Origin: Thermoplasmatales archaeon
GTDB lineage: Archaea; Thermoplasmatota; E2; UBA202; JdFR-43
NCBI GenBank assembly: GCA_014361245.1
Contig: JACIWB010000002.1
Coordinates: 4,297-68,296, forward strand
Direction: 5' to 3'
Length of the DNA stretch: 64,000 nucleotides
Positions 4,525 to 26,322 of the stretch are shown here, piece by piece (position 1 is the stretch's first letter; each line of letters begins with the position of its first letter). The notes below the pieces were generated by a model. That model had not been told where the DNA came from. It worked only from the letters and a program-made list of their open reading frames with translations, and searched no databases. A program made the translations under genes and the position numbers.

Positions 4525-4925
4525 TTGATGGTTTCTATTCTCTCCTGAATGATTTTTTGCATTTTAAAAAGGGATTGTTTTATTTTATCTATTTTTTCCC
4601 TTGTGCTATCAGGCATGCTTTCTACTTCATCCTCTATATGCTCCAAATACCCTCGGCACGCTATCAATGTATTAAGCAAATCATATGAAATTTCTCTTAG
4701 AGGAGTAAGCTCCAGATCTCCTCTTCTCTCTCTTATAAGATGCGTCTGTGGCTCCTTTCTATAATTTATTTTTTCATATAGTTCAAGATAAAGCTGAAGC
4801 GCCTTTACAAGCTCATTTCCTAAAACAGTATGCTTCTTTCCATATTTTTCTTCTACAAACTCCTTAAATTTAAGCCATATTTTTTCCTGTTTATCATCAA
4901 CCCTTACTCCAATCGGCTTGCTCAT
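4521..4925 (-). CDS. hypothetical protein (first gene of the 4925->3065 operon)
   Basis: 134 aa, charged and helical; 4-nt overlap with the downstream kinase-like gene. Confidence 0.35.
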   Translation of the reverse strand: MSKPIGVRVDDKQEKIWLKFKEFVEEKYGKKHTVLGNELVKALQLYLELYEKINYRKEPQTHLIRERRGDLELTPLREISYDLLNTLIACRGYLEHIEDEVESMPDSTREKIDKIKQSLFKMQKIIQERIETIK

Positions 4926-4994
4926 ATTTTGCTAACAATATAAGCAGAATTTAAATATAAGCCTTTTGCAAATCTTTGGTAAAAAGCAAAATCT

Positions 4995-5004
4995 TTATAA
5001 AAAG
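4995..5004 (+). promoter_or_regulatory. putative archaeal TATA box (TTTATAAAAA) giving a long 5' leader for the surface glycoprotein gene
   Basis: AT-rich TATA-like octamer ~90 nt upstream of the start; long leaders are common for S-layer mRNAs. Confidence 0.2.
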
Positions 5005-5081
5005 GAATTGAATTCTACTTGTTTAAAATGGAAAAAGAGAAAAAGTTAAAAAAGGAAAAGCATTTTAGAAAGAAAAATTAA

Positions 5082-5086
5082 GGGGG
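5082..5086 (+). promoter_or_regulatory. Shine-Dalgarno-like GGGGG; its 7-nt spacing fits the ATG at 5094 rather than the one at 5088
   Basis: aagggggaatgaaaATGaat; spacing favours start at 5094 (MNRRNIKK...). Confidence 0.35.
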
Positions 5087-5087
5087 A

Positions 5088-8000: not shown

Positions 8001-8177
8001 ATTAAATTCACACCAGATAAGGAAGGAAACATAACAATAGTTGCAGAGAAAGACGGCTACTACAAGGCAACAAAAACAGCAGAAGTGAAAGCGGGGGCGA
8101 AGGCGCCTGGCTTTGAACTATTGGGCTTTGCAATTGCGATGCTTGCAGCGATAATACTTTTGAGGAGAAGAAGATAA
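5088..8177 (+). CDS. large cell-surface (S-layer-like) glycoprotein with PGF-CTERM archaeosortase sorting signal
   Basis: 1029 aa; Sec signal peptide (RR...VVVVAILASALPVGA/QD); dozens of N-x-S/T sequons; Ig-like repetitive beta-rich body; C-terminus APGFELLGFAIAMLAAIILLRRRR = PGF + TM helix + Arg tail. Confidence 0.75.
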   Translation: MKMNRRNIKKIGSLVVVVAILASALPVGAQDTNPPVTTVTFEPDLPVWGWHVTNVTVTLTATDDESGVNATYYRINEGDWITYTAPFTLSAPGKHTIEYYSIDNEGNEEEPKTAYIPIANLTALQVTPATANWNETKTIEINNAEGTAYLYAPRETTPRYTTAGPGYIRWSNVLLNISGKWWIIDIVDDSKANAFAIDVKPVELVVNATPDEVDYIKVGKPGCYINIEGTVTMAGQPATQAKVKLIYPDGSSEIQNVTTTGSFSFIDKNIGQKGAGAYNVTAFIGDEDYPDASGYDVVNVKTVTPNISVVVNDAVGGFDIGKVAFEVTYPEDGLQLLPGSNYNLSIYKGGELYAWRNNTGTSNETKIAFTIDGKFLNLTSSMWESGNYLLKVNVDVTGDGNWEYVGEKDFAIASPPAVNLKILQPVDKTMNVLAPAANKQLLRIQIFGSNMTTYGTPEALGIGANNENLTERIKIEGDLLYSPPKDAYNYIGNGTWEIDVFPIKGNGFIYINITWPEKGEAKETINISDGGVAIVTPKSVIVDTPTDIEVEVKDKYGNPVANANVNMYYEDDLYLLGEAVANGSISGDGSPGKGLNGKYNFTINSKYAGTNIIVVVDYVISGTGTQYTYARIESRAAHDLNVTFAPSKVLAGENTEFTVNVTKGGQAYSDSFEFYILNETELQKLHDGTLDLPLPVYITSSANSTFKYYIEEAGDYYLYVRTADKKHDNMQNEPSFEVTKAKVTASPSLLVKNVDKNTTVSFSVVWNEKALNGTLRIIGISPQNITWVNDTIEITITDGIGNVTEINATTIGNITFEFKPATEGSVFAEAEGMLRITTPTVEILEPAEKVAFLAEENLITIVVKHPLTNAGIEGLNVEVITPMGAIDVGETDANGKLLFGILPLETGKIHIYVEGDEAGSIDIAIGLKIVVPELEKGKEAKITVTTRGGKPVSGAKVTIDGQTFTTDANGEIKFTPDKEGNITIVAEKDGYYKATKTAEVKAGAKAPGFELLGFAIAMLAAIILLRRRR

Positions 8178-8228
8178 ACCAAACCCCTCTTTCCAAAATA
8201 TTTTAATATCTCTTTTTCTTTTTATCTA

Positions 8229-8546
8229 ATGGTTGATGAAGAAGATGAATTCAGGAAAATAATGAAGGAAATGGGTAAAATATTTGAGGAAGTATTTAAG
8301 GATGTTATGGAACAATTTTCTGGAGAAAAAATTTTTGAAATAAATGAAGATGATAAAAAAATTTATGTAACTGTTGAGCTAAATACAAAAGAGGAAGATA
8401 TAAAAGTTAAGGTATATAAAAATGCGATTGAAATAAGATTAAAAAATGGATGGGCAAAGAAAATTGATTTTCCATGCAAAATCAAGAAAAAAATAAAGAA
8501 AACTTTTAAAAATGGCATTCTTGATTTAGAAATAGAAAAAGCTTAG
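8229..8546 (+). CDS. small heat-shock protein (Hsp20/alpha-crystallin domain), short form
   Basis: 105 aa; core resembles sHSP alpha-crystallin domain (KIYVTVELNTKEEDIKVKVYKNAIEIRL ... GILDLEIEK). Confidence 0.45.
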   Translation: MVDEEDEFRKIMKEMGKIFEEVFKDVMEQFSGEKIFEINEDDKKIYVTVELNTKEEDIKVKVYKNAIEIRLKNGWAKKIDFPCKIKKKIKKTFKNGILDLEIEKA

Positions 8547-9829
8547 ATATATTCTTTTATTTCATCCCTTGCGAATTCTCTTTTTTCTTTTAATTCATTT
8601 AAAAAATTTGAAAGGAGTTCATGGGCATATTTTTTGCATTCTCCACATAAAATTTCTCCATTCCTGCATTTCTCCCTTATATTTAAAATTTCTCCATCGC
8701 TTTCTATAACTCCATAATTGAAAATTTCATATATAATGCATTCCTCCGGTTTCCCCCCATATTTTCTTTGCTCTTCTGCAGAAGTTGCTCCTCCAGTTTT
8801 TGCATTCCATATTTTCTTTTTTAAATCATTTAAGTCATCTGTAAGAAATATTGCGTATTGCGGTCTGCTGCTCGACATTTTATTTCCGTCCAAACCAGTT
8901 ACGAAGCGATGATATGTTGAAGAAGGAAGGATGAAGCCATATCCACCATTTTCTCTCTCTGCTTTAGCAATTTCATATTCAAAAGAAAATATGTCATCAA
9001 TTTTTGCATATATTGCTTTATATCCATCAATTCTCTCTATAACCCTTCCAAAATTATTTACAATTTCTTCAGCAATATCTAAAAATTTTTTGACATTTTC
9101 CTCACCCTTTATAAATATTCCAACCCTATCATCCTCTCTAATTATACTATATATACGATGGGCGCTCGCCACATCCCTGCAAAGCCTTATATGGGGGTCT
9201 TGGTCAATCCCAACAGGAACAAGTGTAGGGCATATTCCACCATATTCATCGAGTTGAACATGCAAAATATCTCCTATTTGAATGAATGGTGCAAAAATAT
9301 GTGCCATGTTTGTTGAACCCTGAAAGCCATAAATTGCATTTATCTGGGAAAAATTTGATTTTTTAGCAAGAAGATATGCCAAATCCTTTACTTCTTCATT
9401 TTTTGATTGAAAATATATTCTGCATGGTTTTAAACCAAGAGCAATGTAATTAAGTATATATTCTTCGATTGCAATTCTTTCTCCTTCTTTAATAGAAATA
9501 TCTCTTGTGGCGTATGCTTCTATATCTGCGACTGCAATACTAATATTTGCTCCTATTGACTGGTAATAAATAACCTGATCTATTACTATTTTATGACCGA
9601 AATGCATTTTCCCAGATGGCATTAATCCAGTTAATATTTTCCATTTCATTCTTCTTTTAATTGCCTCTTTTATGTTATCAAATCCTCTGTGCCCGAAAAC
9701 AATATTTCGGCGGAAGAAAAATGGTGGATGAGGTAAATCCTCCCATAGATTGCCCGAAAATTTTTCTATTCCAAACTTCTCAAATAGCTCATCATATTCA
9801 TATTTCTGCGAGCCCCATGGGTCAATCAT
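8543..9829 (-). CDS. trpS: tryptophanyl-tRNA synthetase (archaeal/eukaryotic type)
   Basis: 428 aa; DPWG...YDELFEKFG...HPPFFFRRNIVFGHRGFD N-terminus matches the eukaryotic/archaeal TrpRS signature; HIGH-like GKMHFGHK; KMSSS; C-terminal Cys cluster CRNGEILCGEC. Confidence 0.85.
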   Translation of the reverse strand: MIDPWGSQKYEYDELFEKFGIEKFSGNLWEDLPHPPFFFRRNIVFGHRGFDNIKEAIKRRMKWKILTGLMPSGKMHFGHKIVIDQVIYYQSIGANISIAVADIEAYATRDISIKEGERIAIEEYILNYIALGLKPCRIYFQSKNEEVKDLAYLLAKKSNFSQINAIYGFQGSTNMAHIFAPFIQIGDILHVQLDEYGGICPTLVPVGIDQDPHIRLCRDVASAHRIYSIIREDDRVGIFIKGEENVKKFLDIAEEIVNNFGRVIERIDGYKAIYAKIDDIFSFEYEIAKAERENGGYGFILPSSTYHRFVTGLDGNKMSSSRPQYAIFLTDDLNDLKKKIWNAKTGGATSAEEQRKYGGKPEECIIYEIFNYGVIESDGEILNIREKCRNGEILCGECKKYAHELLSNFLNELKEKREFARDEIKEYI

Positions 9830-9866
9830 AACATTGCAAGTTATGAAAACATATAAATATTTTGGA

Positions 9867-9937
9867 AGGGCGGGGCGGGAATTGAACCCGCGTATGCGGA
9901 TCTGCAGTCCGCCACCCTACCACTAGGTGACCCGCCC
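9867..9937 (-). tRNA. tRNA-Cys (GCA)
   Basis: Cloverleaf folded by hand: acceptor GGGCGGG/CCCGCCC, D-stem ACCT/GGGT, anticodon stem GCGGA/TCCGC with loop CTGCAGA, T-arm GCGGG-TTCAATT-CCCGC, discriminator U73 (Cys identity). Confidence 0.85.
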
Positions 9938-9958
9938 ATTAAAAAACATGAAAGGTTT

Positions 9959-11791
9959 TTAATTTTTTCCGAAAAATTTGTTTATTTCTTCCAGCAAGTT
10001 ATCTGCTTTTTCCATTTCAATGTATTTTCTGAGCCTTATAGCTCGCTCATCCAATATGATTGCGATTCCTCTATCATTTTCCTTCCTTATAAGCCTGCCG
10101 ATTGCCTGCATTGTTTTTCTTATTGCGGGGGCTTCAAAAGCATATTTCCATCCATTCTGATTTTTATTTTCATAATATTTTTGCAGTGCTGACTGTTTTG
10201 CAGAAGGAGGAGGATATGGCAATCCAACTATCAAAACAATTTCAAGTTCCTCTGAGGGAAAATCAATTCCTTCAGATATTTTTCCTCCTATAACAGATAA
10301 AAAAACTCCTCCTGATTTTTTAAAATTTTCTATCTTATTCATTAATTCTTCCTGTCTCTCATTTCTTCCTTCAACATACAAATTTCTGCTTATATTGAGA
10401 ACATTGATAAATCTATTCATTACTGAATAAGAAGGAAAGAAAACCAGAGTATTTTTATTCACATTATTGCATATCTTCTCTATGTAGCCTGAAATTTTTT
10501 TAACCATATCATCATCAATATAATATTTCGTTGATATTCCCTTTAGATATAAAATCCTCCTATTTTCTTTTGGAAAAGGAGAAGGAAAGATTGCTTTCTC
10601 CGCCTTTATCCCAATTGAATTTATATACTCATCTAAGGGTTGCAATGTGCCCGACATATGAATTGTTGAATAAAATGAATTCAGTATTGAAGATGCTATA
10701 GATGGCTCCAAGCAGTAGGCAACTATCCTTAAATTTTCATTTTCCATTTCAATCAATTTAACCCATCTGTTATCTAAATCAATCCAGTAAAGAATAAAGT
10801 TACCTATGCTTCTTAAAAAAGAGCGAGGAAAACTATTATTCTTTTCCTTTATATCAGCAATTGCCTCACCATATCCAATCATGCCCTCCGCAATTATTTT
10901 TATCTGCTCAACAGAAAAATATTTTTTAAGCATATTTTCAAAAAAATCCCCGATTATTGCATCTCCTCCTTCAGATATTTCAAATTTCTCTCTTATCAAA
11001 ATAAAAATCTTATCCAAGATATCCATAAAATTAGAAATGTTTCTATCTCTGACATCGTATTCCTCTATCTCCTCCATTCCATTTTTTAATGAATTATATG
11101 AAAGAGATGTTGAAAGCAATTCCCTGCAAAAATCTGGCAAGTTATGGGCTTCGTCTATTATAAGTATTGTTTTTTCTGGAGGATATTGATACATGGAAAA
11201 AAATTTCTCCCTTAATATTTCATCAAAAATGTAAATATATGGTGCTATAACTGCTCTTGCTTTTTTAACCAATTCCTTATTTATCTCATATGGACATATA
11301 TTGTGAATTTTACCGTATAAAAAAATTTCCTCAGATGATATAACATTCTCAAAATCATTCTTCATTTTTAAAAAATTTTCAAAAAATATGCATCTATTAA
11401 AATCATCTTTTTTGCGCTCCATACTTCCCTTCTTCCTCCTCGCGCATATCCTCGAAAGCTCTTCATTTGCACAATTTCTGAGAGATGGAAAATTTTCAAC
11501 CAGAAGGCACATATTATTTCTACCCTGCAATCCAGTCGCTCTAATTCCCCCTTTCATCCTTTTAATTTCAATTATCGCCTGCTTTTGCTGGGAGTTTGTC
11601 CTTGTTGTATAAACCACCCCCATATCATTTTCAATTGCAAATTTAATGCAGGGCGCCAGCACGCTTATTGTTTTTCCACTCCCGGCGGGCGCCTCCATCA
11701 CGAGATTTTTTCTTCTTTTAAGGCATTCTTCAATTTTTGAAATAATTTCGAGCTGAAACTTTCTTGGGTTATATGGGAAAAAATCAATCAT
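9959..11791 (-). CDS. xpd: XPD/Rad3-family (DinG-like) 5'-3' DNA helicase with Fe-S cluster domain
   Basis: 610 aa; Walker A AGSGKT, DEAH (IIDEAHNL), four Cys in the insertion (CLL...C...C...C) typical of the XPD 4Fe-4S domain; 8-nt overlap with upstream aIF5B. Confidence 0.8.
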   Translation of the reverse strand: MIDFFPYNPRKFQLEIISKIEECLKRRKNLVMEAPAGSGKTISVLAPCIKFAIENDMGVVYTTRTNSQQKQAIIEIKRMKGGIRATGLQGRNNMCLLVENFPSLRNCANEELSRICARRKKGSMERKKDDFNRCIFFENFLKMKNDFENVISSEEIFLYGKIHNICPYEINKELVKKARAVIAPYIYIFDEILREKFFSMYQYPPEKTILIIDEAHNLPDFCRELLSTSLSYNSLKNGMEEIEEYDVRDRNISNFMDILDKIFILIREKFEISEGGDAIIGDFFENMLKKYFSVEQIKIIAEGMIGYGEAIADIKEKNNSFPRSFLRSIGNFILYWIDLDNRWVKLIEMENENLRIVAYCLEPSIASSILNSFYSTIHMSGTLQPLDEYINSIGIKAEKAIFPSPFPKENRRILYLKGISTKYYIDDDMVKKISGYIEKICNNVNKNTLVFFPSYSVMNRFINVLNISRNLYVEGRNERQEELMNKIENFKKSGGVFLSVIGGKISEGIDFPSEELEIVLIVGLPYPPPSAKQSALQKYYENKNQNGWKYAFEAPAIRKTMQAIGRLIRKENDRGIAIILDERAIRLRKYIEMEKADNLLEEINKFFGKN

Positions 11792-13502
11792 GCTTTCTCT
11801 TTATTTTTATTACTTTTTCAAGAACATCCTTTTCATCAATGCTCAAATCTTCTTCAAGCAATTTTTGAATATCATTTTCGCTTAAATCAACAAAGAGTAT
11901 TTGCTCTGGCTTTATCTGCCTTCCAACAGTTGCCCCTTCTATTGAAATTGCAACTTCCATTCCCTTTGTTGCTCTATCAAGAGATCTCTTTTCCATCTGA
12001 ATGCTTTTTATTTTTCCAATCTTTTTTCCATCTTCTCTTATTAAATGTTGCTCGGGTCTTATTTCCCCAGCAAGAACTCTTACTCCAATAATTGCTGGCT
12101 TACTCAGCCTGAAGGTGCAATTTGGAAGGAAGAGAATCATTCCTGGATATGTTATTTCCATTCTTTTTTTCTCCTCCTCTTCCTTCCTTTTATTTTCTCT
12201 CCATTTCTCAAGTTTTTCAATTAGATGATAAACAACACTATCTGTTATTATTTCCACACCCTCACTATCCTCCACTTCAGGAAGAACTTTTACATTGAAA
12301 CCAATTATTGCCCTATTTACCTCTCTTTCATTTGTTTTTGCCTCAAAAATATCCCTTTTTGATATATCTCCTATTTCAGCCTTCCTTAAAGGTATATTTT
12401 TCTCTTTAAGAATTAAGGATATTGCTTCAAGAGAGCCGAGCGCATCTGCTTTTAATACAACTCCTTCATCGGTTGTTTCAATATTTATTTTCATCTCCTC
12501 CTCTATCTTCTTCATATCTTCTTCAACATTTTTTAAAACTTTTATCGGAGCTCCAGCAAAAGCATCTTCAAGTCGCGGGGCAACTATTTTAACCCCGCAT
12601 GCTGCGGTAGCAATTTTAACTCTCCTGAACTTTTCTTCAGGAGCCCTTATTTCATCAAGTGGCTTTGGCTTAAGCAAGGCTCTTACTGTTGTAATTATTG
12701 CTCCTTTTTTTCCAGCAACTATTATTTCATCTCCTTCCTTAATTACGCCATTGTAAATTATTACATCAATAGTTGTGCCTAAACCCTTTTCTTCTTTAAC
12801 TTCAAGAACAGTTCCCTCCGCTTCTTTTTCCTCACAAATCAAATTTTCTTCAAGGAATTTTTGAGATAAGCCAATCAGAATCATTATCAGTTCGTCTATA
12901 CCTTCGCCATTTTTTGCTGAAATAGGAACAATTGCAACATTTCTCGTAAAATCCCTTATTCTGTCATATCTATCTGAAGAAAAACCCAAATCATAAATTT
13001 GCTCGACAAGCCTGTAAAATTTTTTATCAAAATCTTTTTTTGCCATTTCATTTTGTTCTTCAAGTCTTTTTGATATTACCCCTTCTTTTTTTCTCCATAA
13101 ATCAATTAAATCTATCTTATTTGCTGCTATAACAAAAGGTGTCTTGTATTTCTTAAGTATTGCAACCGCCTCTTTTGTCTGTTCCATTATTCCCTCATTT
13201 ATATCAACAACAAGAATAGCAAGGTCAGCAAGAGCTCCACCCCTTGCTCTCAAAGTTGTAAAGGCAAAATGTCCTGGTGTGTCGATAAAAAGCAAGCCAG
13301 GAATTTTAAATTCCTTTCCTTTAAGCAAATTACCACATATTTCTTTTACTGTTTCTATTGGCACTTCAGTTGCTCCTATATGCTGTGTGATTGCTCCCGC
13401 CTCCTTTGCGGCGACACAGCCGCCTCTTATGTAATCAAGGAGTGTTGTTTTTCCATGGTCAACATGTCCGAGAACTGCAACAATTGGTTGTCTGAAGTAC
13501 AT
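11784..13502 (-). CDS. infB: translation initiation factor aIF5B (IF2 homologue)
   Basis: 572 aa; G1 motif VLGHVDHGKTTLLDYIRG, DTPGH, NKID; size fits aIF5B, not aIF2-gamma. Confidence 0.85.
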   Translation of the reverse strand: MYFRQPIVAVLGHVDHGKTTLLDYIRGGCVAAKEAGAITQHIGATEVPIETVKEICGNLLKGKEFKIPGLLFIDTPGHFAFTTLRARGGALADLAILVVDINEGIMEQTKEAVAILKKYKTPFVIAANKIDLIDLWRKKEGVISKRLEEQNEMAKKDFDKKFYRLVEQIYDLGFSSDRYDRIRDFTRNVAIVPISAKNGEGIDELIMILIGLSQKFLEENLICEEKEAEGTVLEVKEEKGLGTTIDVIIYNGVIKEGDEIIVAGKKGAIITTVRALLKPKPLDEIRAPEEKFRRVKIATAACGVKIVAPRLEDAFAGAPIKVLKNVEEDMKKIEEEMKINIETTDEGVVLKADALGSLEAISLILKEKNIPLRKAEIGDISKRDIFEAKTNEREVNRAIIGFNVKVLPEVEDSEGVEIITDSVVYHLIEKLEKWRENKRKEEEEKKRMEITYPGMILFLPNCTFRLSKPAIIGVRVLAGEIRPEQHLIREDGKKIGKIKSIQMEKRSLDRATKGMEVAISIEGATVGRQIKPEQILFVDLSENDIQKLLEEDLSIDEKDVLEKVIKIKRKHD

Positions 13503-13570
13503 GAAAGAAAAATTGCAGGCAATTAAATAATTTTTGCCAAAAACATTTTTATCATTGTTAGAATACCATT

Positions 13571-14188
13571 ATGCTTGCTGTGTTTGACATGGATGGGGTA
13601 TTTATTGAAGAAAGGAGCTCATGGAAGGTAATTCATAAAAAATATGGAATAAAAAATGATGATATTGTTGAAGCATATAAAAGAAGGGAGATAGGCGATG
13701 AGGAATTTTTAAACAGAGACATTGAAAGATGGAGGGAAAGAGGAATAAGGAGGAAAGATATTGAAGAAGTTTTCAATTCAATAGAACTGACCCCTGGATG
13801 CAGGGAATGTATTGAATATTTTAATAAAGTCGGGAAAGTTGCGATAATATCAGGGGGAATTGATATTCTTGCAAAAAGAATTGCAAATTTTGGAGTAGAA
13901 TATGTTTTTGTAAATGGAATAATCTATAAAAATGAACTACCATGGAAAGCAATTTTAAATGTTCCTCTAATGGAAAAGGGGAAAATACTTGAAAAGTTAA
14001 TTGAAAAATTGGGCTTGGAAAAAGAAGATGTAATTGTTGTAGGGGATACAAAGTATGATGTTGATATGTTTAAAAGGGCTGGTTTAAAAATTGCCTTCAA
14101 TCCAACAGATGAAATAAAAAATTTTGCAGATTTTGTAATAGAAAAAAGAGATTTAAATGAATTAATTAAAATATTTGAAAAGCATTAA
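13571..14188 (+). CDS. HAD-superfamily hydrolase (phosphoserine phosphatase-like, subfamily IB)
   Basis: 205 aa; motif I FDMDGV at N-terminus; GDTKYD near C-terminus. Confidence 0.55.
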   Translation: MLAVFDMDGVFIEERSSWKVIHKKYGIKNDDIVEAYKRREIGDEEFLNRDIERWRERGIRRKDIEEVFNSIELTPGCRECIEYFNKVGKVAIISGGIDILAKRIANFGVEYVFVNGIIYKNELPWKAILNVPLMEKGKILEKLIEKLGLEKEDVIVVGDTKYDVDMFKRAGLKIAFNPTDEIKNFADFVIEKRDLNELIKIFEKH

Positions 14189-14798
14189 AAATATGCTGAC
14201 CGCACTCCTTATATTAATAATATTTGCGCTGATTTCCTTCCTTGTTTATTCAATCTTTACATATGTTTTTGAAGAAGTTGGTTTTAAATGGTGGGAAGCA
14301 AGCTTAATAGTTTTTAGCTCCCTGCTTTTTAGAGAGGTTAATATCCCTCTTTTTCAATATGAAAATTTAACCATAGCAATAAATTTAAGCGGTGCTCTCC
14401 TCCCGTTGCTGATAAGTGCCTACTTAATTTTATCAAGAAAAATATTTTTAAGAAGTTTGCCAGGAATAATAATTGTAACATTTGTTGCATACATGGTTAG
14501 CTATGCATCGCATGAAGGGATTGTATCGCCTTTTCCATACTGGCTTTTGCCGCCCATTTCTTCAGCTCTCTACAGCTTGGTCGCTGGCTATAAAAATAAA
14601 AGGAAGGTTGCAAGCATTGCCTATTCATGTGGGACATTTGGGGCGATTATAGGCGCGGATTTCCTCCATTTTAAAGAATTTTTGGAAATGAATTCGAGCA
14701 GACAAATTGTTGCAAGCATAGGAGGGGCAGCGATTCTTGATATGGTATTTCTTACTGGAATAATTGCGGTTATAATAGCTGCCTTATTTTATGAATGA
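14175..14798 (+). CDS. hypothetical integral membrane protein
   Basis: 207 aa with ~5 predicted TM helices; overlaps HAD gene by 14 nt. Confidence 0.4.
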   Translation: MKSIKNMLTALLILIIFALISFLVYSIFTYVFEEVGFKWWEASLIVFSSLLFREVNIPLFQYENLTIAINLSGALLPLLISAYLILSRKIFLRSLPGIIIVTFVAYMVSYASHEGIVSPFPYWLLPPISSALYSLVAGYKNKRKVASIAYSCGTFGAIIGADFLHFKEFLEMNSSRQIVASIGGAAILDMVFLTGIIAVIIAALFYE

Positions 14799-14871
14799 GA
14801 AAAATTAAGCGGCATAATTTGGTGGAAAGAGTTAAACTGCAACGCATTTTTTACTCCCCAGGACGATATGT

Positions 14872-15324
14872 TCATTCAACCGTTTTTTCATGCGATAGCT
14901 TTTCGAATATTTTCAAAAGCTCTATCTCGAGTTTTTTAATGTAGCTTCCAAATTCCCCACTAAAAACCTTGTTTTTTAGTATTTTTATCCCGCCCGCAGC
15001 ATAACTCTCAGCAATTGAATAGACCTCTTTTGGATTGAGTAAAACTTGTAAATCCCCCCTTTTATCAGCGATTGCAACAGCCTTTATAAGAGCTTTTTCC
15101 GCTGGATTTAAATATGCTACTCTATCATAATCCTTTGTTTTTTCTCTTTCTAAAGAGATCTTTTTTCTTTCACGATAGCCGATAGCCATTGCCATTAGAA
15201 ACACTGCTTTTCTTGTAGAATTTATAAATGGGCTTTCTTTTTCGTTGAGTAGGGTGTTGAAATCATCTAAGTCAGTAGCTCTAACCCGTATTATTAACGG
15301 TTCTTTGGGTCTATCCTTATTCAT
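14872..15324 (-). CDS. hypothetical 150-aa protein, last gene of the candidate defense operon (in the DndE position relative to a DndD-like ATPase)
   Basis: 8-nt overlap with the upstream ATPase gene (translational coupling); no recognisable catalytic motif; basic and helical. Confidence 0.4.
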   Translation of the reverse strand: MNKDRPKEPLIIRVRATDLDDFNTLLNEKESPFINSTRKAVFLMAMAIGYRERKKISLEREKTKDYDRVAYLNPAEKALIKAVAIADKRGDLQVLLNPKEVYSIAESYAAGGIKILKNKVFSGEFGSYIKKLEIELLKIFEKLSHEKTVE

Positions 15325-17338
15325 AGGGTTTCACCTCCGCCTCGCTTCCAGAAGTATATTCTTTGAAATTTATTTTGTAATCCTTCCAAACAACATCTGA
15401 TAATGCATCCCTTACATGGGATGTGTACTCGGTACTGGTTACCAATAATATCACCTGAGTATTTTTGAAATGCTTTGGTATCGTTTTGGCAATATTCTCT
15501 CTAGGTTCTCTATCAATTCTTGCTAAGGGTGTGTCTATAATTATAGGAGCGTCTATACCTGACACCGTATTTAATGCCGCTATAAATGCGAGTGCCAATG
15601 ATTGTCTTTCTCCGGCACTTAATGTTCCTAGCGCAGGTCTACCTTGCTGGTCAGTTACTGAAAAGGTGTAGTTATCATCTATTTTTACATCACTATATGT
15701 TATCGCTTTTGGGATTATAGCGAAAAACTCTTCTTTAGTTTTTCTTTCTATCTCCTCTCTGGTTTCCCTCATGATTTCTTCTGTAATCCTTTGTGCAGCA
15801 TTTAAAGCATATTCACAAAATGAGTTTATTTTTCTTAATTCACTTAATTTTTTCTCTTTTTTAAGTTCTTCATCCAAATCTATCTTAATAGCCTCTATCG
15901 TTGTTTCGGTTTGCCTGATTTGGGCGCACAATTCCCCTATCTTTTCATCTGCCTTCTTTATTTCGTTGTTATAATCCTCGTATCTCTCCTCCAACATTTT
16001 TATCTTTTCAATATTCACACCTTTAATTTCGTCCTCTATATTTTTCAATCTATCTCTTTTCCTATTAAGATCTTCCTCCATCTCCTTAATTTTCTCGGTG
16101 TATTTTTTAAGATTCTTATCAAAACCAATCATTTTTTCTTGGTGTCTTCTCAATTCGTTGTGAAGCTCTATAATTTCCTCTGTTATATTAGTTATCTCGT
16201 CGCACTCCTCTAAAAGTTTCTTTATTCTTAATCTATAATCATTATCCTTAGATATATCCATACCACATATACAGACACCCTCTTTTAACAATTTTTCTAA
16301 AAAATTTCTTTTATAATCTGGCGGGATCTCTCCAGCCTCCTTTCTCTTAGATATAGGTTTTAGTGATTCATCGATTGCATCGCACAGGAATATTGTTGGC
16401 GCAACACTGATAAGATAAGCGGCTTTATTTTTTTCCTCCTCAGCAAATTCATTATCAATCCTTTTTAGATCTTTTTCAATACTCTCCCTCTCTTCTGCTA
16501 ATCTCTTAATATCTTTAGGAGAAATGCCTATTAATTCTTTTTGAATCTCTTTTCTATCTGCTTCAGCTTCTTTTCTATGTGCCTTTAGTTTTTCTAAATC
16601 TTCTTCTAATTTTTTCTTTGAAGCTTCAAAACACGCCTTTTTTTCTTCTAGATCTTTTATTTTAGGCGTTAGATCCTTAGATAAGGCAAAAAACTTTTTC
16701 TTCACCTCTTCTAAATGAGAAATCACTTTTTTCAACAAATCTAGTTGTGCGATTCTAAATACGGCTTTTTTTATTTCTTCTCCAGCCTCTTCTCTAAAGT
16801 AGTCATCCAATCTCTCCCCATCGAAAAAGAAGTATTCATGAATTTCTTTAGGAAAAATCCTTTGAATCGCATTAGTTGGGTCACGGAAGTAGCCCATATC
16901 TTTCCCTATCTGTACAAGTATCTCAAGTTTTGAACCATCTGATTGATTTGAGAAATATCGATCCTTGATTATTTCGATTTTATTTTCATCTAATTTTTTC
17001 ACCTTAGCGGATCTTTTAATTTTATATTTTTTACTTTTATCAATATTAGTTAGGCCTATCTCGACTTCTATATCAGCGATTTCATTTTCTCCTACCTGGG
17101 ATAGAGAGAGTGTGTTAAGGAGTGGCAACCCTTCATATTTTTTAGATAGGTAAAATTCCTCGCCATAAAGGCACCAAGTAATCGCGTTTAGAAAATTAGT
17201 TTTTCCTGCACCTGTTGTCCCTTCGATAACTATAACATTTTTTCCAGGTTCCACGTACATATTATCAATTACAACATCTTTATACTGCCTATAATTTTTT
17301 AATTTAATATAATCAATGAACATTTCTACACCTCCCAC
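15317..17338 (-). CDS. SMC/Rad50-like ABC ATPase with long coiled coil, DndD-like (AAA_23-type N-terminus)
   Basis: 673 aa; Walker A GTTGAGKT; FFFDGERL motif; ~350-aa E/K-rich coiled coil; signature LSAGERQ; Walker B/D-loop IIIDTPLARID, where the catalytic Glu is replaced by Thr as in DndD-family proteins; no Rad50 CxxC zinc hook and no Mre11 partner. Confidence 0.6.
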   Translation of the reverse strand: MGGVEMFIDYIKLKNYRQYKDVVIDNMYVEPGKNVIVIEGTTGAGKTNFLNAITWCLYGEEFYLSKKYEGLPLLNTLSLSQVGENEIADIEVEIGLTNIDKSKKYKIKRSAKVKKLDENKIEIIKDRYFSNQSDGSKLEILVQIGKDMGYFRDPTNAIQRIFPKEIHEYFFFDGERLDDYFREEAGEEIKKAVFRIAQLDLLKKVISHLEEVKKKFFALSKDLTPKIKDLEEKKACFEASKKKLEEDLEKLKAHRKEAEADRKEIQKELIGISPKDIKRLAEERESIEKDLKRIDNEFAEEEKNKAAYLISVAPTIFLCDAIDESLKPISKRKEAGEIPPDYKRNFLEKLLKEGVCICGMDISKDNDYRLRIKKLLEECDEITNITEEIIELHNELRRHQEKMIGFDKNLKKYTEKIKEMEEDLNRKRDRLKNIEDEIKGVNIEKIKMLEERYEDYNNEIKKADEKIGELCAQIRQTETTIEAIKIDLDEELKKEKKLSELRKINSFCEYALNAAQRITEEIMRETREEIERKTKEEFFAIIPKAITYSDVKIDDNYTFSVTDQQGRPALGTLSAGERQSLALAFIAALNTVSGIDAPIIIDTPLARIDREPRENIAKTIPKHFKNTQVILLVTSTEYTSHVRDALSDVVWKDYKINFKEYTSGSEAEVKPYE

Positions 17339-17532
17339 TCTTTTGCGTATTTTTCAACAAGTTTCATATATTCATCTTGCACCCCTCGTGGGCGACTTTC
17401 GTATATATAATTGAACTCCAGCATAATTACTTCCCACAAAAATTTCTTAATTATATCTGGGTAGTCGCCTTTATCTATTTTACTCTTTATTCTTTCACTA
17501 ACATCTTCTTCTATTTTCTTCTCTTTTCTCAT
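17326..17532 (-). CDS. hypothetical 68-aa protein inside the candidate defense operon
   Basis: Overlaps the ATPase start by 13 nt and lies 6 nt after the helicase gene; helical and charged. Confidence 0.35.
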   Translation of the reverse strand: MRKEKKIEEDVSERIKSKIDKGDYPDIIKKFLWEVIMLEFNYIYESRPRGVQDEYMKLVEKYAKEWEV

Positions 17533-17538
17533 TTTCCT

Positions 17539-19677
17539 TTACACCCCTTCCCATAATTTTTTTTCGATTTTATAAATATTATTGAGGCACTCTAAACTAT
17601 TGACCGCGATTTCAGCGAATTCTTTATACCTGATTAATTCTTTATAAAATATCTTTCTTTCCAAATCTTCTATTGAGGAGTTATTTATCCATGAGAGTGC
17701 AGGTACCACTATAACATCGTATATTATTGCTTTTTCTTTTCCGGGAAAACGTCTTAGAACTCTTCCTCTCCTCTGAATCCATTCTCGGGGGTTACTACTA
17801 CTCATTAGGATTATTGCAGTAGTAGCGGCTGGTACATCAACTCCTTCATCTAAGCATCGGATAGCCACTAAAACTTGGTATGTTCCTTCCGCAAATTTTT
17901 GAAGTAAAAATTCTCTCTCTGATAACCCACCATACTCCTCGCTAGGGGTAATCTTTTCTCTTAGAGTAAATTTATGTTGGGTGATATTCAATTCATTCAA
18001 AATATTTTGTACATGATTTATTTGTTCTGGCGAACAATAAACCAAACAATGTTTAATATTCTTACCCATTTCTTCTATTATTTTTTTAAAAGTATCGTAC
18101 TTTTTAATTGCGTTTTTTATAATCTCCTGTCGTTTAACGCACAATAACGAAAACCATTTCTTACGCTCGTTATCTGTTTTTGAGCTATAGTATGATTTAG
18201 CGATTTTTTTTGTGACACTCTCGTATCTTTCCAATTCTTCCTTATTTAATTCCACAAAATAAGGTTTATATTCGTAGGGTACCAGATAAGTTTTCCCTGT
18301 AGCTGGATTTAGTGTATTAACAGCATCTTTTAACGAAAATTCGAACACAGTGCCACCGAAATAATTGAAAAGTGTTTCAGTACCTTCCAAATCAAACCAT
18401 CGCTTAGGTGTTGCGCTTAATCCTAGCCTAAAATGGTAGAGATCCAGCAAACCTCTTTTCCTTTTTGGCGCTCCAATTCCATGAACTTCATCTACAATCA
18501 AAAACAATTTTTCATTTGCAGATCGAATTATTTTGATAAAATTATCTGTATGAAAAGTGGCGTGTGTTGTTAGCACAATTAAATTATTTTCAATCCCGAT
18601 TTTTATATCTATTAGGGAATCAGAGAGTTTATCTTTCCAATCAGGATTGCTACTGTCTGCAACAATATATTCACAGGTTAAACCAAATTCATCTATATCA
18701 TTAATCCACTGTCTTATCAAATGATTAGATGGGCAAGTTATAACTGCTATTGTTTTATTATAATTTTCCATTACTTTTTTAAGGCATCCTAAAGCAGCAA
18801 AAGTTTTCCCTAAACCTGTAGCCATCTCAAAAATTCCTTTCATGTCATTATTAAACCATTTCTGAATCGCATCCTTTTGATGTGGGTAAAACTCTATTTC
18901 CTTCTTCTTTTCTCCTTTCTTCAGATACCATCTTTGGAGGTAAACCTCATCGATGTTTTTTGGTGCTATTTCGATTAATTTCCTTTTAACTGCTTCGGGC
19001 ACCTCCATAACTATTATTCGGGAAGCTTTATTATTCCAGAATCTTTCAAATTTTAATATGTCGGCCTCTACATATTCTTTTTCCTCTTTTATCCATTTTC
19101 TAAAAACTTTAAATTCCTCAATATTTTTTAGCCATCCAGACGCAGATTCGTTTATAGATCCACTAAAGGTAAGAATATCTCCCACTATATCTTTTAAAAT
19201 TCCTATCTTTTGATGAAACACACCTTGTAATTGAATTTCATCGAAACTCAGGGGTTGTCCATCTTCATCTGAAACTATGGCAACTTTTATTTCTAATCTT
19301 TTATTCGCAATCATCCATCCGAGCGCAAAAATATGATCTCTTATAAATTCATCCTCTAATTTTTCTAGTTCTTCAACCATTCTCCTCTCTACATAGTTTT
19401 GAGGATTTTCAGTAGCATCTTTAATAATTTTAATGTCTTTTTCATCTAATTTTGGTGATACCAATAATTTCATTGTGCCATTGTTTTTTATTAACCCAAG
19501 AATTCCTCGTGCCGCGATAGCTAAACTAGTCGATGAAAAAAATCCAGCAATCCTGTCATACTCTATACACTCTGATAACGCCGGGATATAAAAATCGTTT
19601 AAAATATCATCAGTATCTGATGAATATGTCTTTTTTAATGACAAATCTCTAAACCCCATATTTGCACCAATTTTCAA
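17539..19677 (-). CDS. fusion protein: N-terminal phospholipase-D-family (HKD) nuclease domain + SF2 helicase (ResIII/DEAH-type)
   Basis: 712 aa; HKD motif HQKIGILKD-x6-FSGSINESASGW (aa ~155-182); helicase motifs Q/I (PHQKDAI, EMATGLGKT), II (VDEVH), III (GLSATP), VI (QRRGRVLR). Confidence 0.7.
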   Translation of the reverse strand: MKIGANMGFRDLSLKKTYSSDTDDILNDFYIPALSECIEYDRIAGFFSSTSLAIAARGILGLIKNNGTMKLLVSPKLDEKDIKIIKDATENPQNYVERRMVEELEKLEDEFIRDHIFALGWMIANKRLEIKVAIVSDEDGQPLSFDEIQLQGVFHQKIGILKDIVGDILTFSGSINESASGWLKNIEEFKVFRKWIKEEKEYVEADILKFERFWNNKASRIIVMEVPEAVKRKLIEIAPKNIDEVYLQRWYLKKGEKKKEIEFYPHQKDAIQKWFNNDMKGIFEMATGLGKTFAALGCLKKVMENYNKTIAVITCPSNHLIRQWINDIDEFGLTCEYIVADSSNPDWKDKLSDSLIDIKIGIENNLIVLTTHATFHTDNFIKIIRSANEKLFLIVDEVHGIGAPKRKRGLLDLYHFRLGLSATPKRWFDLEGTETLFNYFGGTVFEFSLKDAVNTLNPATGKTYLVPYEYKPYFVELNKEELERYESVTKKIAKSYYSSKTDNERKKWFSLLCVKRQEIIKNAIKKYDTFKKIIEEMGKNIKHCLVYCSPEQINHVQNILNELNITQHKFTLREKITPSEEYGGLSEREFLLQKFAEGTYQVLVAIRCLDEGVDVPAATTAIILMSSSNPREWIQRRGRVLRRFPGKEKAIIYDVIVVPALSWINNSSIEDLERKIFYKELIRYKEFAEIAVNSLECLNNIYKIEKKLWEGV

Positions 19678-19865
19678 TCAACTACTATTATCTAATATAA
19701 TAGAATTTTAAAAATTTTGTGCCTATCGCTTATAACTATCTCTATAGAGCGAATGAAAATCCTCTTTATCAACCGTTGCCCGATCTTCAAAAATTATTTA
19801 ACTTTTTGCGATGCCGAATATCAGCAATGAATGAGAAAAATTATAAGGCAAGGAAATATAACTTT

Positions 19866-21155
19866 ATGCTTCGCACCCATTATATAAATGAAATAAGCGA
19901 AAAGGAACATGAAAAAAGGGTTTGCATTGCTGGATGGGTTGAAGAAATAAGAAATCTTGGAGGAATAGCATTCATAATTTTAAGGGATAGAAGTGGGAAA
20001 GCACAAATCACAGCAATAAAAAAGGAAAATGCCGAACTTTTTAAGGCAATTACCTCGCTGAACAGGGAGAGTGTGATATCAGCATGCGGAATATGCAAGA
20101 GGAATGAAAAAGTAATGAATGGATGGGAAATTTTGCTTGAGGAATTTAAATTAATCAGCGAGGCATCAACACCTCTTCCAATGGGAGTAATAGATAAGGT
20201 TAATGTTGATTTCGATACCCGTCTTGATAACAGGATAATAGATTTAAGAAAAGATGATGTTAAAGCAATTTTTATGATAAGAAATTCATTTATAAAGTAT
20301 GCTTCAGAATTTTTAAGAAAAAAAGGTTTTATGGAAGTTCATACTCCAAAAATTTCATCTTCATCATCTGAAGGAGGAACAGAAGTCTTCAGAATAGATT
20401 ATTTTGATAGAGATGCATATCTTGTGCAATCTCCCCAACTATACAAACAAATGTTAATGGCAACTGGTTTTGATAGAGTTTTTGAAATAGCATGGTATTT
20501 CAGGGCGGAGGAGCATGACACAACCCGCCATCTTAATGAATCAACTGCTGTTGATATAGAAATGGCATTCATCGATAGCGAGGAAGATGTGATGAGAATT
20601 GCAGAGGAAATGACAGATTATTCAATAAATAAAATAGTTGGTGAGAATAGCAAGGAATTGAGCATTCTTAACGCTGAAATAGAATTCCCATCTCCTCCAT
20701 ATCCAAGAATAAGGTATGATGAAGTTGTTGAAATACTTAGTAAGGAAATAAATTTTTCATGGGGAGAAGATTTGGGGGCGGATGAGGAAAATATTTTATA
20801 CAAAAATTTGGGATATGATATTTATTTCATAAAGGATTTCCCTCTATCATCAAAACCATTTTATGCAATGCCATCTGGGAAATATGCAAGAGCATTTGAT
20901 CTCGAGCTAAGGGGAATGGAAATTGCATCTGGCGCACAGCGCATTCATGATTATGAACTGCTTACTAAAAGAATGATCGAGCTTGGAATGAATCTAAAAA
21001 ATTTCGAAGAATATCTGAAAGCATTTAAATATGGAATGCCTACCCATGGCGGATTTGGTTATGGAATTGAGCGCTTCCTAATGAGCTTTCTTAAATTGAA
21101 AAATATAAGAGAATGCATACTTTTTCCAAGAGATAGATACAGAATTAAACCTTAA
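19866..21155 (+). CDS. asnS: asparaginyl-tRNA synthetase (class II)
   Basis: Strong motif-level similarity to archaeal AsnRS (FRAEEHDTTRHLNEST, SWGEDLGADEE, GGFGYGIERFLM with ER not DR). ORF track starts at 19719 but the homology-supported start is MLRTHYINE at 19866 (alternative 19827). Confidence 0.75.
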   Translation: MLRTHYINEISEKEHEKRVCIAGWVEEIRNLGGIAFIILRDRSGKAQITAIKKENAELFKAITSLNRESVISACGICKRNEKVMNGWEILLEEFKLISEASTPLPMGVIDKVNVDFDTRLDNRIIDLRKDDVKAIFMIRNSFIKYASEFLRKKGFMEVHTPKISSSSSEGGTEVFRIDYFDRDAYLVQSPQLYKQMLMATGFDRVFEIAWYFRAEEHDTTRHLNESTAVDIEMAFIDSEEDVMRIAEEMTDYSINKIVGENSKELSILNAEIEFPSPPYPRIRYDEVVEILSKEINFSWGEDLGADEENILYKNLGYDIYFIKDFPLSSKPFYAMPSGKYARAFDLELRGMEIASGAQRIHDYELLTKRMIELGMNLKNFEEYLKAFKYGMPTHGGFGYGIERFLMSFLKLKNIRECILFPRDRYRIKP

Positions 21156-24788: not shown

Positions 24789-25097
24789 ATGGATGAAGAA
24801 GTTGAGCAACGAATACCCTTGCCAAAAAAAAATGAAAAAGAAATGTTTGCTATTGTTGAACAGCACATGGGAGGGGGTAGATTAAAGATTGTTTGCGAGG
24901 ACGGAAAATCAAGAATGGCAAGAATACCTGGAAAAATAAAGAAAAGAAAGTGGATAAAAACAGGGGATTTAATCATTGTCAAGGCATGGGATTTTCAGGA
25001 TGAAAAAGCGGATGTAATATATCGCTACACCCCGACCCAGATAGTAAATCTTGATAGAAAAAATCTTATTCCCGATACCCTAAAAGGATTTTTATGA
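24789..25097 (+). CDS. eif1a: translation initiation factor aIF1A
   Basis: 102 aa; S1-like OB-fold sequence typical of eIF1A (GGGRLKIVCEDGKSRMARIPGKIKKRKWIKTGDLIIV). Confidence 0.85.
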   Translation: MDEEVEQRIPLPKKNEKEMFAIVEQHMGGGRLKIVCEDGKSRMARIPGKIKKRKWIKTGDLIIVKAWDFQDEKADVIYRYTPTQIVNLDRKNLIPDTLKGFL

Positions 25098-25792
25098 AAA
25101 AAATTGAAGAGCTAAGGAAAACAGAAGGAGAAGTTTTTGAAAAAACAACCCTCGATGCCCTTGCAAAATTGATGAATGACGGTTTTATTGATTATATTGA
25201 TTTTCCAATTTCAACTGGAAAGGAGGGAAATGTTTTTAGAGGGGTATGTGGTGAAAGATTAATAGCAATCAAGATTTATAGGATAAATACTGCAACATTC
25301 AGAAGCATCTCAAAATATCTTATGTATGACCCACCTGAAAAAATTAAATTTGACAGAAGAAACATAATTTTTGCTTGGGCTAAAAAAGAATTTGGCAATC
25401 TTAAAAAATTGTATGAGGCTGGCGTGAGGGTGCCCGAACCAATAGCGATTGAGGAAAATGTAATTGTAATGGAGTATATAGGGAGCAAGGCGAAGCCAGC
25501 CCCATTGCTTAAAGATGCAAATATAAAAAATGCAGAGAAAATTTTTGAGAAAATAAAAAAATATCTCAAGCTTATGTATCAAAAAGCAAAACTTGTTCAT
25601 GCCGATTTTTCTGAATATAATGTTCTAATTTATAGAAATAACCCAGTTATAATAGATGTGGGACAAACTGTTAAAAGAGAAAATCCGATGGCAATGGAAT
25701 TTTTAAGGAGAGATGTATATAATATAGTAAAATTTTTTAAAAAATTCATTAATATAGAAGAGGAAGATACAATCTCTTACATAATTGGGTGA
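25094..25792 (+). CDS. RIO-type serine/threonine protein kinase (Rio1-like)
   Basis: 232 aa; RIO motifs (STGKEGNVF, LVHADFSEYNVLIY); conserved archaeal aIF1A-Rio-KH gene order. Confidence 0.8.
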   Translation: MKKIEELRKTEGEVFEKTTLDALAKLMNDGFIDYIDFPISTGKEGNVFRGVCGERLIAIKIYRINTATFRSISKYLMYDPPEKIKFDRRNIIFAWAKKEFGNLKKLYEAGVRVPEPIAIEENVIVMEYIGSKAKPAPLLKDANIKNAEKIFEKIKKYLKLMYQKAKLVHADFSEYNVLIYRNNPVIIDVGQTVKRENPMAMEFLRRDVYNIVKFFKKFINIEEEDTISYIIG

Positions 25793-26322
25793 TGAAGATG
25801 AAATATGTTAAAATTCCTATTGATAGGGTGGGTGTTTTAATTGGCAAGAACGGAGAAACAAAAAGCAGCATAGAGAGTTATGGATTAAAGCTTGAGGTTA
25901 ACTCGAGCATAGGAGAAGTTAAAATAGAAAGTGAGGATAAGATAAGGGAGATGGAAGCAGAAAATGTTGTTGTTGCAATTGGAAGAGGATTTTCTCCAGA
26001 GAAAGCAATTCTTCTGTTTAATGAGGACTACTATCTTGAAATAATTGATATAAGAGATTGGGTTGGGAAAAAGGAAAATCATATAAGAAGGCTTGCTGGC
26101 AGAGTGATTGGAAAAAATGGAAGGGCAAGAGAAATTATAGAAGAATTAAGTGGAGCATATGTGAGCATTTATGGACACACAATTGGAATAATAGGGAAAA
26201 TCGAGAATTTGCAGATTGCAAAAAAAGCAGTAGAGATGTTGCTTGAAGGAGCAAATCATTCAACAGTTTATAGATTTCTTGAAGAAGAAAATAGAAGAAG
26301 AAAGATGATGGAAATGCTCTGA
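25789..26322 (+). CDS. KH-domain RNA-binding protein (Dim2/Krr1-like)
   Basis: 177 aa; two KH GxxG loops (IGKNGETK, IGKNGRAR). Confidence 0.7.
   Translation: MMKMKYVKIPIDRVGVLIGKNGETKSSIESYGLKLEVNSSIGEVKIESEDKIREMEAENVVVAIGRGFSPEKAILLFNEDYYLEIIDIRDWVGKKENHIRRLAGRVIGKNGRAREIIEELSGAYVSIYGHTIGIIGKIENLQIAKKAVEMLLEGANHSTVYRFLEEENRRRKMMEML

Follow-up and report, generated by a model that had tools for sequence, protein, structure and literature searches.

A PbeABCD-type defence cassette, probably acquired as a repeat-flanked 5-kb insertion, in a Thermoplasmatales archaeon

Four tightly packed genes on contig JACIWB010000002.1 of a Thermoplasmatales archaeon raise the question of which system they encode, how they came to lie where they do, and whether they could act without partners. 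The DNA studied is a 64-kb stretch of this contig (hereafter the window), and an earlier note on its sequence had proposed that four coupled minus-strand genes form an undescribed operon matching no system that could be named. The list of open reading frames (ORFs) agrees exactly with the coordinates and spacings given there, with minus-strand ORFs at 17539-19677 (712 aa), 17326-17532 (68 aa), 15317-17338 (673 aa) and 14872-15324 (150 aa); as first listed, a gap of 6 nt is followed by overlaps of 13 and 8 nt. The claim of novelty did not survive: PADLOC models and two papers identify the four genes as a copy of the already described PbeABCD, i.e. a system anchored by a CxC ABC ATPase and a DndE-like protein, which is real but not new. 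It is highly probable that they constitute a PbeABCD-type defence cassette, horizontally acquired as a 5036-bp insertion between a DUF1614 gene and aspS.

PbeABCD was named by Xiong et al. (2019, Nat Commun) for an archaeal four-gene cassette of Haloterrigena/Natrinema jeotgali A29, whose products are a helicase fusion (PbeA), a 66-aa protein (PbeB), an SMC-like ATPase (PbeC) and a 152-aa protein (PbeD). The cassette protects roughly 10^4-fold against virus SNJ1 only with its four genes complete, and this protection depends on phosphorothioate (PT) marks from the adjacent dndCDEA (PMC6459918). The Aravind laboratory (Nucleic Acids Research, 2024) has since equated PbeABCD with the CxC-ABC-ATPase/DndE-anchored systems and re-annotated PbeA as an HKD endoDNase plus superfamily 2 (SF2) helicase, PbeB as a small protein that evolves fast, PbeC as a CxC ATPase and PbeD as DndE-like, arguing from the conserved HKD that the mechanism includes cleavage of DNA or abortive self-cleavage (PMC10853773). 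A literature search for newer work on the PbeA/PbeC mechanism found nothing beyond these two papers and reviews.

The window copy is identified as PbeABCD because PADLOC matches its PbeA and PbeC over their full length and because gene order, sizes and domains are the same as those published. Five PbeA models match the first product, the best being PDLC02707 (E 2.1e-240, residues 9-697 against model positions 2-668), while PbeC is matched full length by PDLC02723 (E 2.8e-128), with PbeC models making up 20 of the best 25 models listed and ranking above DndD. NCBIfam adds matches of the cassette proteins to dnd_restrict_1 and dnd_assoc_4, the former (TIGR04095, 'DNA phosphorothioation system restriction enzyme') scoring 440 bits on PbeA. 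The genes follow the A-B-C-D order in a single tightly packed operon, an order that is essentially universal in the relatives surveyed, which are loci gathered by exact-protein look-ups and a metagenome scan; it was seen in L002, L005, L006 and L009-L015, and pbeA adjoins pbeC in about 60 metagenome loci. A scan of genome contigs with PbeA alone returned one true relative, L002.

All defining features that can be read from sequence are therefore present, and the operon belongs to an already named system, the outcome that the earlier note had itself set against its proposal. The DefenseFinder/PADLOC and Pfam check suggested there divides accordingly, since PADLOC names PbeA and PbeC whereas Pfam yields only generic helicase and SMC_N families. 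This generic Pfam picture and the NCBI record of the 150-aa protein (H5T45_00790 from a Thermoplasmatales archaeon metagenome-assembled genome (MAG), 100% identical and annotated as a hypothetical protein) are what speaks for a genuinely new, unnamed defence system; against the full-length PADLOC matches, the exact four-gene architecture in both papers (PMC6459918, PMC10853773) and thousands of homologs with the same gene order, such a system is scarcely credible.

Two of the gene starts differ from those first listed (Table 1). The ATG at 19659 is likely the true start of pbeA and the ATG at 17323 that of pbeC; both are preferred because other gene callers chose them and because the profiles begin there, and residue numbers here refer to the resulting 706-aa PbeA and 668-aa PbeC. 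With the ATG at 17323, the pbeB-pbeC junction becomes a 2-nt gap instead of a 13-nt overlap. The A+T-rich region upstream of pbeA is the presumed promoter, with the TATA-like sequences TTTTTAAAA and TTATATTA 25-60 nt upstream of the start codons.

PbeA joins an N-terminal nuclease domain to a helicase, the fusion of a PLD/HKD nuclease with a ResIII-type helicase that the earlier note had described. Pfam finds ResIII, DEAD and Helicase_C in the full-length protein and no PLD match at E<=0.1; the isolated N-terminus gives a weak PLDc_2 match (E 0.0069). Given this weak signal, the nuclease assignment is made on the invariance of the catalytic motif together with NCBIfam and PADLOC. The motif reads HQKIGILKD...GSIN in translation, with all seven of its key residues invariant among 120 homologs, and NF042964 (phospholipD_antiphage) matches the same N-terminus (E 8e-25). 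The helicase core resembles XPB/Rad25 in a search of Protein Data Bank (PDB) sequences (E 2e-23), which also matched, weakly, LlaGI and a Type I R subunit; residues G284, K285, T286, D390, E391 and H393, and motif VI (QRRGRxxR), are likewise invariant in the 120 homologs.

PbeC is, as had been noted, an SMC-like ABC ATPase (SMC_N/AAA_23-like in Pfam) with a coiled coil and a Walker B motif, IIIDTP, that lacks the Glu. An exhaustive HMMER search found 4072 relatives at E<=1e-10, from which 144 representatives were aligned. The GK[TS] of Walker A is invariant in this alignment, and in Walker B D597 is kept in 145/145 sequences, T598 in 127/145 and P599 in 138/145; because D-T-P is thus kept across the family, the Glu-less Walker B is a family trait and not a sign of decay. 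The same alignment overturns the statement that the ATPase has no zinc hook, for a CxC, a putative hook of this kind, lies in the middle of the protein, with C351 in 144/145 and C353 in 145/145 family members. This motif is the defining feature of the 'CxC ABC ATPase' clade, the sister of DndD (PMC10853773). In a single-sequence AlphaFold2 model of low confidence (predicted local distance difference test, pLDDT, 43.5), used for its secondary-structure pattern only, the CxC falls in a non-helical break (348-360) between long helices spanning 181-328 and 361-532. The DndD model TIGR03185 scores 208 bits on PbeC, under its cutoff of 245.85, and the Rad50 models of NCBIfam reach 38-42 bits against cutoffs of at least 700; a PDB sequence match links the head to that of Rad50 (E 3e-8).

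The two small products are more divergent. With the window left out, a hidden Markov model (HMM) made from nine relatives' small ORFs recovers the window PbeB at E 1e-14 among 11,949 ORFs, and 52 of 60 loci have a small ORF (49-93 aa) in the pbeA-pbeC interval. A fold search assigns PbeD to the DndE fold, with long loops and a long C-terminal helix, and this DndE-like tandem ribbon-helix-helix protein is encoded beside the ATPase; a profile search of PDB sequences with the PbeD alignment found nothing, and the DndE link comes from the fold search only.

How the cassette came to its present position can be read from a close relative. The large PolD subunit of the window shares 88% identity with its counterpart in another Thermoplasmatales MAG, whose contig (L007) runs colinear with some 27 kb of the window (about 6.9 to 34.6 kb) at 82-84% DNA identity. 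Orthology with this contig identifies the flanking genes as encoding HAD, DUF1614 (a membrane protein), a class IIb aminoacyl-tRNA synthetase (aaRS) and PolD, in keeping with the earlier description of a cassette between unrelated housekeeping genes. In L007 the pbe genes are absent and aspS lies 31 bp from the DUF1614 gene, leaving an empty site. Relative to it, the window carries an insertion of 5036 bp, equal to the start-to-start spacing of two direct repeats; the window has the exact repeat ATGAATGAGAAAAATTA twice where 0.01 copies would be expected by chance, and L007 has it once. The repeat looks like an att site or a target-site duplication, and no recombinase lies inside the 5036-bp cassette. 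The insertion is recent; the G+C content of the island, 0.334 against 0.343, does not set it apart.

The insertion also bears on the call of the neighbouring gene. The aaRS ORF at 19719-21155 (GTG 19719, 478 aa) extends 147 nt into the inserted DNA, whereas its L007 ortholog has 429 aa; because of this, the true aspS start is the ATG at 19866 (429 aa), and the longer GTG-started ORF is an artefact that the insertion has created. From its QSPQLYKQ motif we take the synthetase to be probably an AspRS rather than an AsnRS.

The empty site also bears on the possibility that these genes form a housekeeping DNA repair module, with a Rad50/SbcC-like ATPase and an XPB-like helicase. The PDB sequence matches to the Rad50 head and to XPB/Rad25 would suit such a role, but a close relative whose synteny is identical lacks the genes, no Mre11 neighbour is present, the hook is CxC instead of the CxxC of Rad50, and relatives occur in defence islands with DISARM-like, Gabija-like, BREX-fragment and restriction-modification (R-M) neighbours, all of which makes a repair module very improbable. 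The comparison of empty and filled sites, with the 17-bp repeat, shows that the four pbe genes on their own can be mobile, as a 5-kb cassette that encodes no recombinase.

The window copy is solitary within the 14.8 kb that lie to one side of it and the 44 kb to the other. Among the 52 other ORFs of the window, PADLOC at E<=1e-4 found no Dnd, Ssp, methyltransferase or restriction endonuclease, with three weak unrelated matches only; Pfam applied to the L007 syntenic orthologs and to the unassigned window ORFs returned housekeeping genes, and tblastn of the relatives' radical SAM (rSAM), DndB-like and other neighbouring proteins against the window gave noise (best E 0.03). A linked modification module, which is not obligatory in such systems, is thus absent from the 64-kb window; other CxC systems carry cytosine methyltransferases as such a module (PMC10853773). 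The earlier picture, an anti-mobile-element, Dnd-related operon that forms an island among housekeeping genes and has neither a methyltransferase nor DndA/C close by, is in this respect well supported.

Close relatives, in contrast to the window, do carry a candidate partner. A gene for a B12-binding/radical SAM protein stands beside the pbe operon in 11 of the 11 informative loci of the close subclade, defined as those with PbeA at least 53% identical to that of the window and with enough flanking DNA. It mostly follows pbeD directly, and in L005 and L010 takes the form of a divergent paralogous pair upstream of pbeA. Blastp shows the rSAM proteins to be homologous to one another (E 1e-15 to 1e-142), and all have CxxxCxxC, except the second paralog of L005 and L010; they are distantly like class B radical SAM methyltransferases, with NCBIfam matches all far under cutoff. 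PADLOC has essentially no model for these proteins, and the main texts of the two Pbe papers, searched by term, yielded no rSAM partner. A neighbour-joining tree places the window PbeA within the clade that bears rSAM genes, beside L009, and yet no homolog of the gene occurs in the window, the one copy without it among the informative close-subclade loci; most simply, the gene was lost, or left behind when the cassette was inserted. The linkage suggests that the B12/rSAM protein is an unexamined modification partner of this Pbe subclade, and it bears on how solitary Pbe systems tell self from non-self. This association and the repeat-flanked mini-island are the sole points that go beyond the literature searched.

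Other features of the relatives were recorded alongside. Defence islands surround several of them (L005 1-6752; L011 16428-19950; L013 17242-19140; L009 7025-9444; L006 17099-17651), with neighbours that include a DrmE_C/helicase (DISARM-like) cluster, an OLD-TOPRIM ATPase with a UvrD helicase (Gabija-like), BrxL fragments with HEPN/NTase, a C5-methylase with EcoO109I R-M, and an Eco57I-type IIG enzyme. In the bacterial relative L013, pbeC is split at 12308-14270 into ORFs of 193 and 452 aa, which may reflect a pseudogenised copy or an assembly frameshift; the window pbeC is intact. Homologs of pbeA-pbeC-pbeD also occur on two contigs classed as viral, L096 (IMG/VR, 4732-11346) and L095, with 43% identity to the window PbeA, and are preceded there by an ORF of roughly 630 aa with a weak match to the rSAM HMM, so that Pbe cassettes may travel on viruses or proviruses.

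Several observations weigh against reading the cassette as a PbeABCD-type defence system. The PADLOC PbeB match of the 68-aa protein is weak (E 0.04) and PADLOC gives no match for the 150-aa PbeD; the NCBIfam scores of PbeA, PbeC and PbeD all lie under the curated cutoffs, with some of the models representing other subfamilies or parts of proteins; and placement of the CxC at the coiled-coil tip in three dimensions is not confirmed by a model of the confidence given above. On the side of function, Xiong et al. saw a block of replication and no visible cleavage of viral DNA, which conflicts with a nuclease step, and PbeABCD without PT gave no protection and also no toxicity (PMC6459918). The characterised PbeABCD is inactive without PT, and the window has no modification genes.

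These last points lend themselves to another explanation, in which the cassette is an orphan or inert remnant, an intact-looking but currently non-functional restriction-type module whose self-marking partner (rSAM or dnd) is missing and which confers neither protection nor harm. The inertness of the PT-less experimental system would, by analogy, favour this orphan state, as do the lack of modification genes over 64 kb and the fact that a sister of L009 should be without a gene found at every informative locus of its subclade. The four ORFs are nevertheless intact with every catalytic motif kept, visible decay looks different (as in the split pbeC of L013), the search for modification genes covers the 64-kb window only, and 320 of 553 published pbeAC pairs (58%) are solitary (PMC6459918), which is hard to explain if all are dead. 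The flawless preservation of the motifs, and the large number of solitary pbe loci, speak for the maintenance of such copies, and we consider an inert remnant possible but unlikely.

A different arrangement would place PbeC and PbeD on the modification side, acting like DndD-DndE with an unlinked dndC and iscS, while PbeA provides the linked restriction, in an R-M-like system split across the genome. It draws on the view that DndD/CxC and DndE form the obligate DNA-scanning core of modification operons (PMC10853773), on the 208 bits of PbeC with the DndD model and on the DndE fold of PbeD. However, no PP-loop DndC homolog is found in the window; PT writing in the tested system called for a DndD and a DndE of its own in addition to PbeC and PbeD (PMC6459918, PMC10853773); and within 10 kb of the close-subclade loci neither DndC nor DndA nor a second DndD occurs. 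The precomputed Pfam annotation, which covers nine close-subclade loci, shows no DndC- or DndA-type families, and a second DndD-like ATPase occurs in none of the subclade loci and in nine more distant ones. A split R-M-like system of this kind is accordingly quite improbable.

Returning to the PbeABCD-type cassette, we offer as a speculative extension, one with rather low odds, that the subclade is a five-gene system in which the B12-binding radical SAM enzyme performs self-marking through a DNA modification other than phosphorothioate or methyl-cytosine, the window copy, reduced to the four core genes but with every catalytic motif retained, being a natural 'restriction-only' variant. If that were true, the PbeABCD core either defends without modification or reads a mark from an unlinked enzyme. 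Independently of this, the finding itself amounts to one more solitary PbeABCD copy, annotated as hypothetical, in a Thermoplasmatales MAG.

A working scheme for the cassette can be drawn by analogy with the family, from which a defence function of the window copy may also be read. PbeC would dimerise through its CxC hook and ATP-engaged heads and, together with the tandem ribbon-helix-helix PbeD, might form a DNA-binding and scanning complex. This complex would recruit or license PbeA, which may translocate on double-stranded DNA with its XPB-like SF2 motor and whose single HKD site, needing dimerisation, could nick or cleave invading DNA or at least block replication, the small PbeB being a possible adaptor or regulator. 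Because no modification partner lies within 64 kb and the window copy has lost the rSAM gene or never acquired it, its present activity might rely on an unlinked modification system, be independent of modification, or be nil.

Table 1. Positions of the pbe genes, their motifs and the insertion boundaries in the window, and of the rSAM genes at related loci
Feature	Position	Strand	Description
pbeA	17539..19659	-	N-terminal HKD (PLD-superfamily) nuclease domain + XPB/Rad25-like SF2 helicase; 706 aa; alternative TTG 19677 gives 712 aa
HKD catalytic motif of PbeA, single	19147..19215	-	HQKIGILKDIVGDILTFSGSINE; H149, K151, D157, G167, S168, N170, E171
Helicase motif I to motif II of PbeA	18481..18822	-	ATGLGKT 18802-18822; DEVH 18481-18492
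pbeB	17326..17532	-	68-aa small protein gene in the pbeA-pbeC interval
pbeC	15317..17323	-	Coiled-coil ABC ATPase, CxC clade, sister of DndD; 668 aa; alternative GTG 17338 gives 673 aa
Walker A of PbeC	17198-17221	-	GTTGAGKT (translation)
CxC motif of PbeC, putative zinc hook	16265..16273	-	C351-I-C353 within VCICG, residues 350-354
Walker B of PbeC	15527..15544	-	IIIDTP; Thr-Pro after Asp, without Glu
pbeD	14872..15324	-	150-aa DndE-like protein, clade-2 'DndE cognate'
Left direct repeat	14791..14814	+	ATGAATGAGAAAAATTA, exact over 17 nt; 24 nt at 88%; overlaps DUF1614 stop codon
Right direct repeat	19827..19850	+	Upstream of aspS (true start ATG 19866)
Upstream region of pbeA	19660..19826	-	167 bp, A+T-rich, within inserted DNA
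rSAM gene, L002	12463-13725		
rSAM gene, L005	6926-9813		
rSAM gene, L006	11639-12769		
rSAM gene, L009	5008-6318		
rSAM gene, L010	1953-4828		
rSAM gene, L011	14734-15975		
rSAM gene, L012	12617-13954		
rSAM gene, L013	14701-15966		
rSAM gene, L014	14699-15955		
rSAM gene, L015	16589-17689		
rSAM gene, L019	4077-5441		

Some further features of the window lie apart from the cassette. A trio of eIF-1A, RIO1 and KH genes is found about 5 kb from it (24789-26322) and about 3 kb from the pbe cassette of the archaeal contig L006 (560-2243), a vicinity that could be coincidence or a recurrent insertion neighbourhood. Two overlapping short minus-strand ORFs at 43460-44111, of 93 and 129 aa, are probably a degraded insertion-sequence transposase, since the 129-aa one weakly matches DDE_Tnp_IS240 (E 0.0015), and ORFs of 576 and 253 aa at 51719-53449 and 60890-61651 have no Pfam match at E<=0.01.

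Among known systems, the PbeABCD of strain A29 is the closest, with the same four genes in the same order and in one operon, a PbeA that is likewise a helicase fusion of about 700 aa, and small proteins of nearly equal length (PbeB 66 against 68 aa in the window, PbeD 152 against 150 aa). Unlike the window copy, which has no dnd genes in 64 kb and in this resembles the published solitary pairs, the A29 system adjoins dndCDEA and needs PT, and its host is a haloarchaeon whereas the window comes from a low-GC Thermoplasmatales MAG. The components that characterise the CxC ABC ATPase-DndE systems, namely the HKD nuclease with SF2 helicase, the small fast-evolving protein, the CxC coiled-coil ATPase and the clade-2 DndE cognate, are all present, while the optional partners of those systems, cytosine methylases and MTaX1 (PMC10853773), are missing from the window. 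DISARM, Lamassu and other PLD- or SMC-containing systems were rejected, since the PADLOC Pbe matches lead by more than 100 orders of magnitude; the one DISARM-related match was DrmD at E 0.012, and no Lmu model appeared among the matches listed.

Three further comparisons define the cassette by its differences. DndABCDE was rejected because neither DndC nor DndA is matched in the window, the ATPase scores below the DndD cutoff and the CxC is present; in contrast to the DndD-DndE core, where this hook is reported absent, the window cassette has it, and it is coupled to a nuclease-helicase and not to sulfur-transfer enzymes, with no DndC, DndA or DndB. Rad50/SbcC shares with PbeC a coiled-coil ABC ATPase architecture, a mid-protein cysteine hook and a similar head, yet Rad50/SbcC-Mre11 was likewise rejected on its CxxC, the low scores of the Rad50 models and the lack of an Mre11-like neighbour, and PbeC differs further in a much shorter coiled coil (about 350 residues), in having no Mre11/SbcD and in a Walker B without Glu. 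Finally, the Res/HsdR-type subunits of Type I/III and Type ISP (LlaGI) enzymes resemble PbeA in combining an SF2 translocase and a nuclease in one polypeptide and in their ResIII matches, and a Type I/III restriction assignment was considered and rejected; the nuclease of PbeA is of the HKD/PLD and not the PD-(D/E)xK kind, there is no cognate Mod or HsdM, and target recognition in the window system is presumably delegated to PbeC and PbeD.

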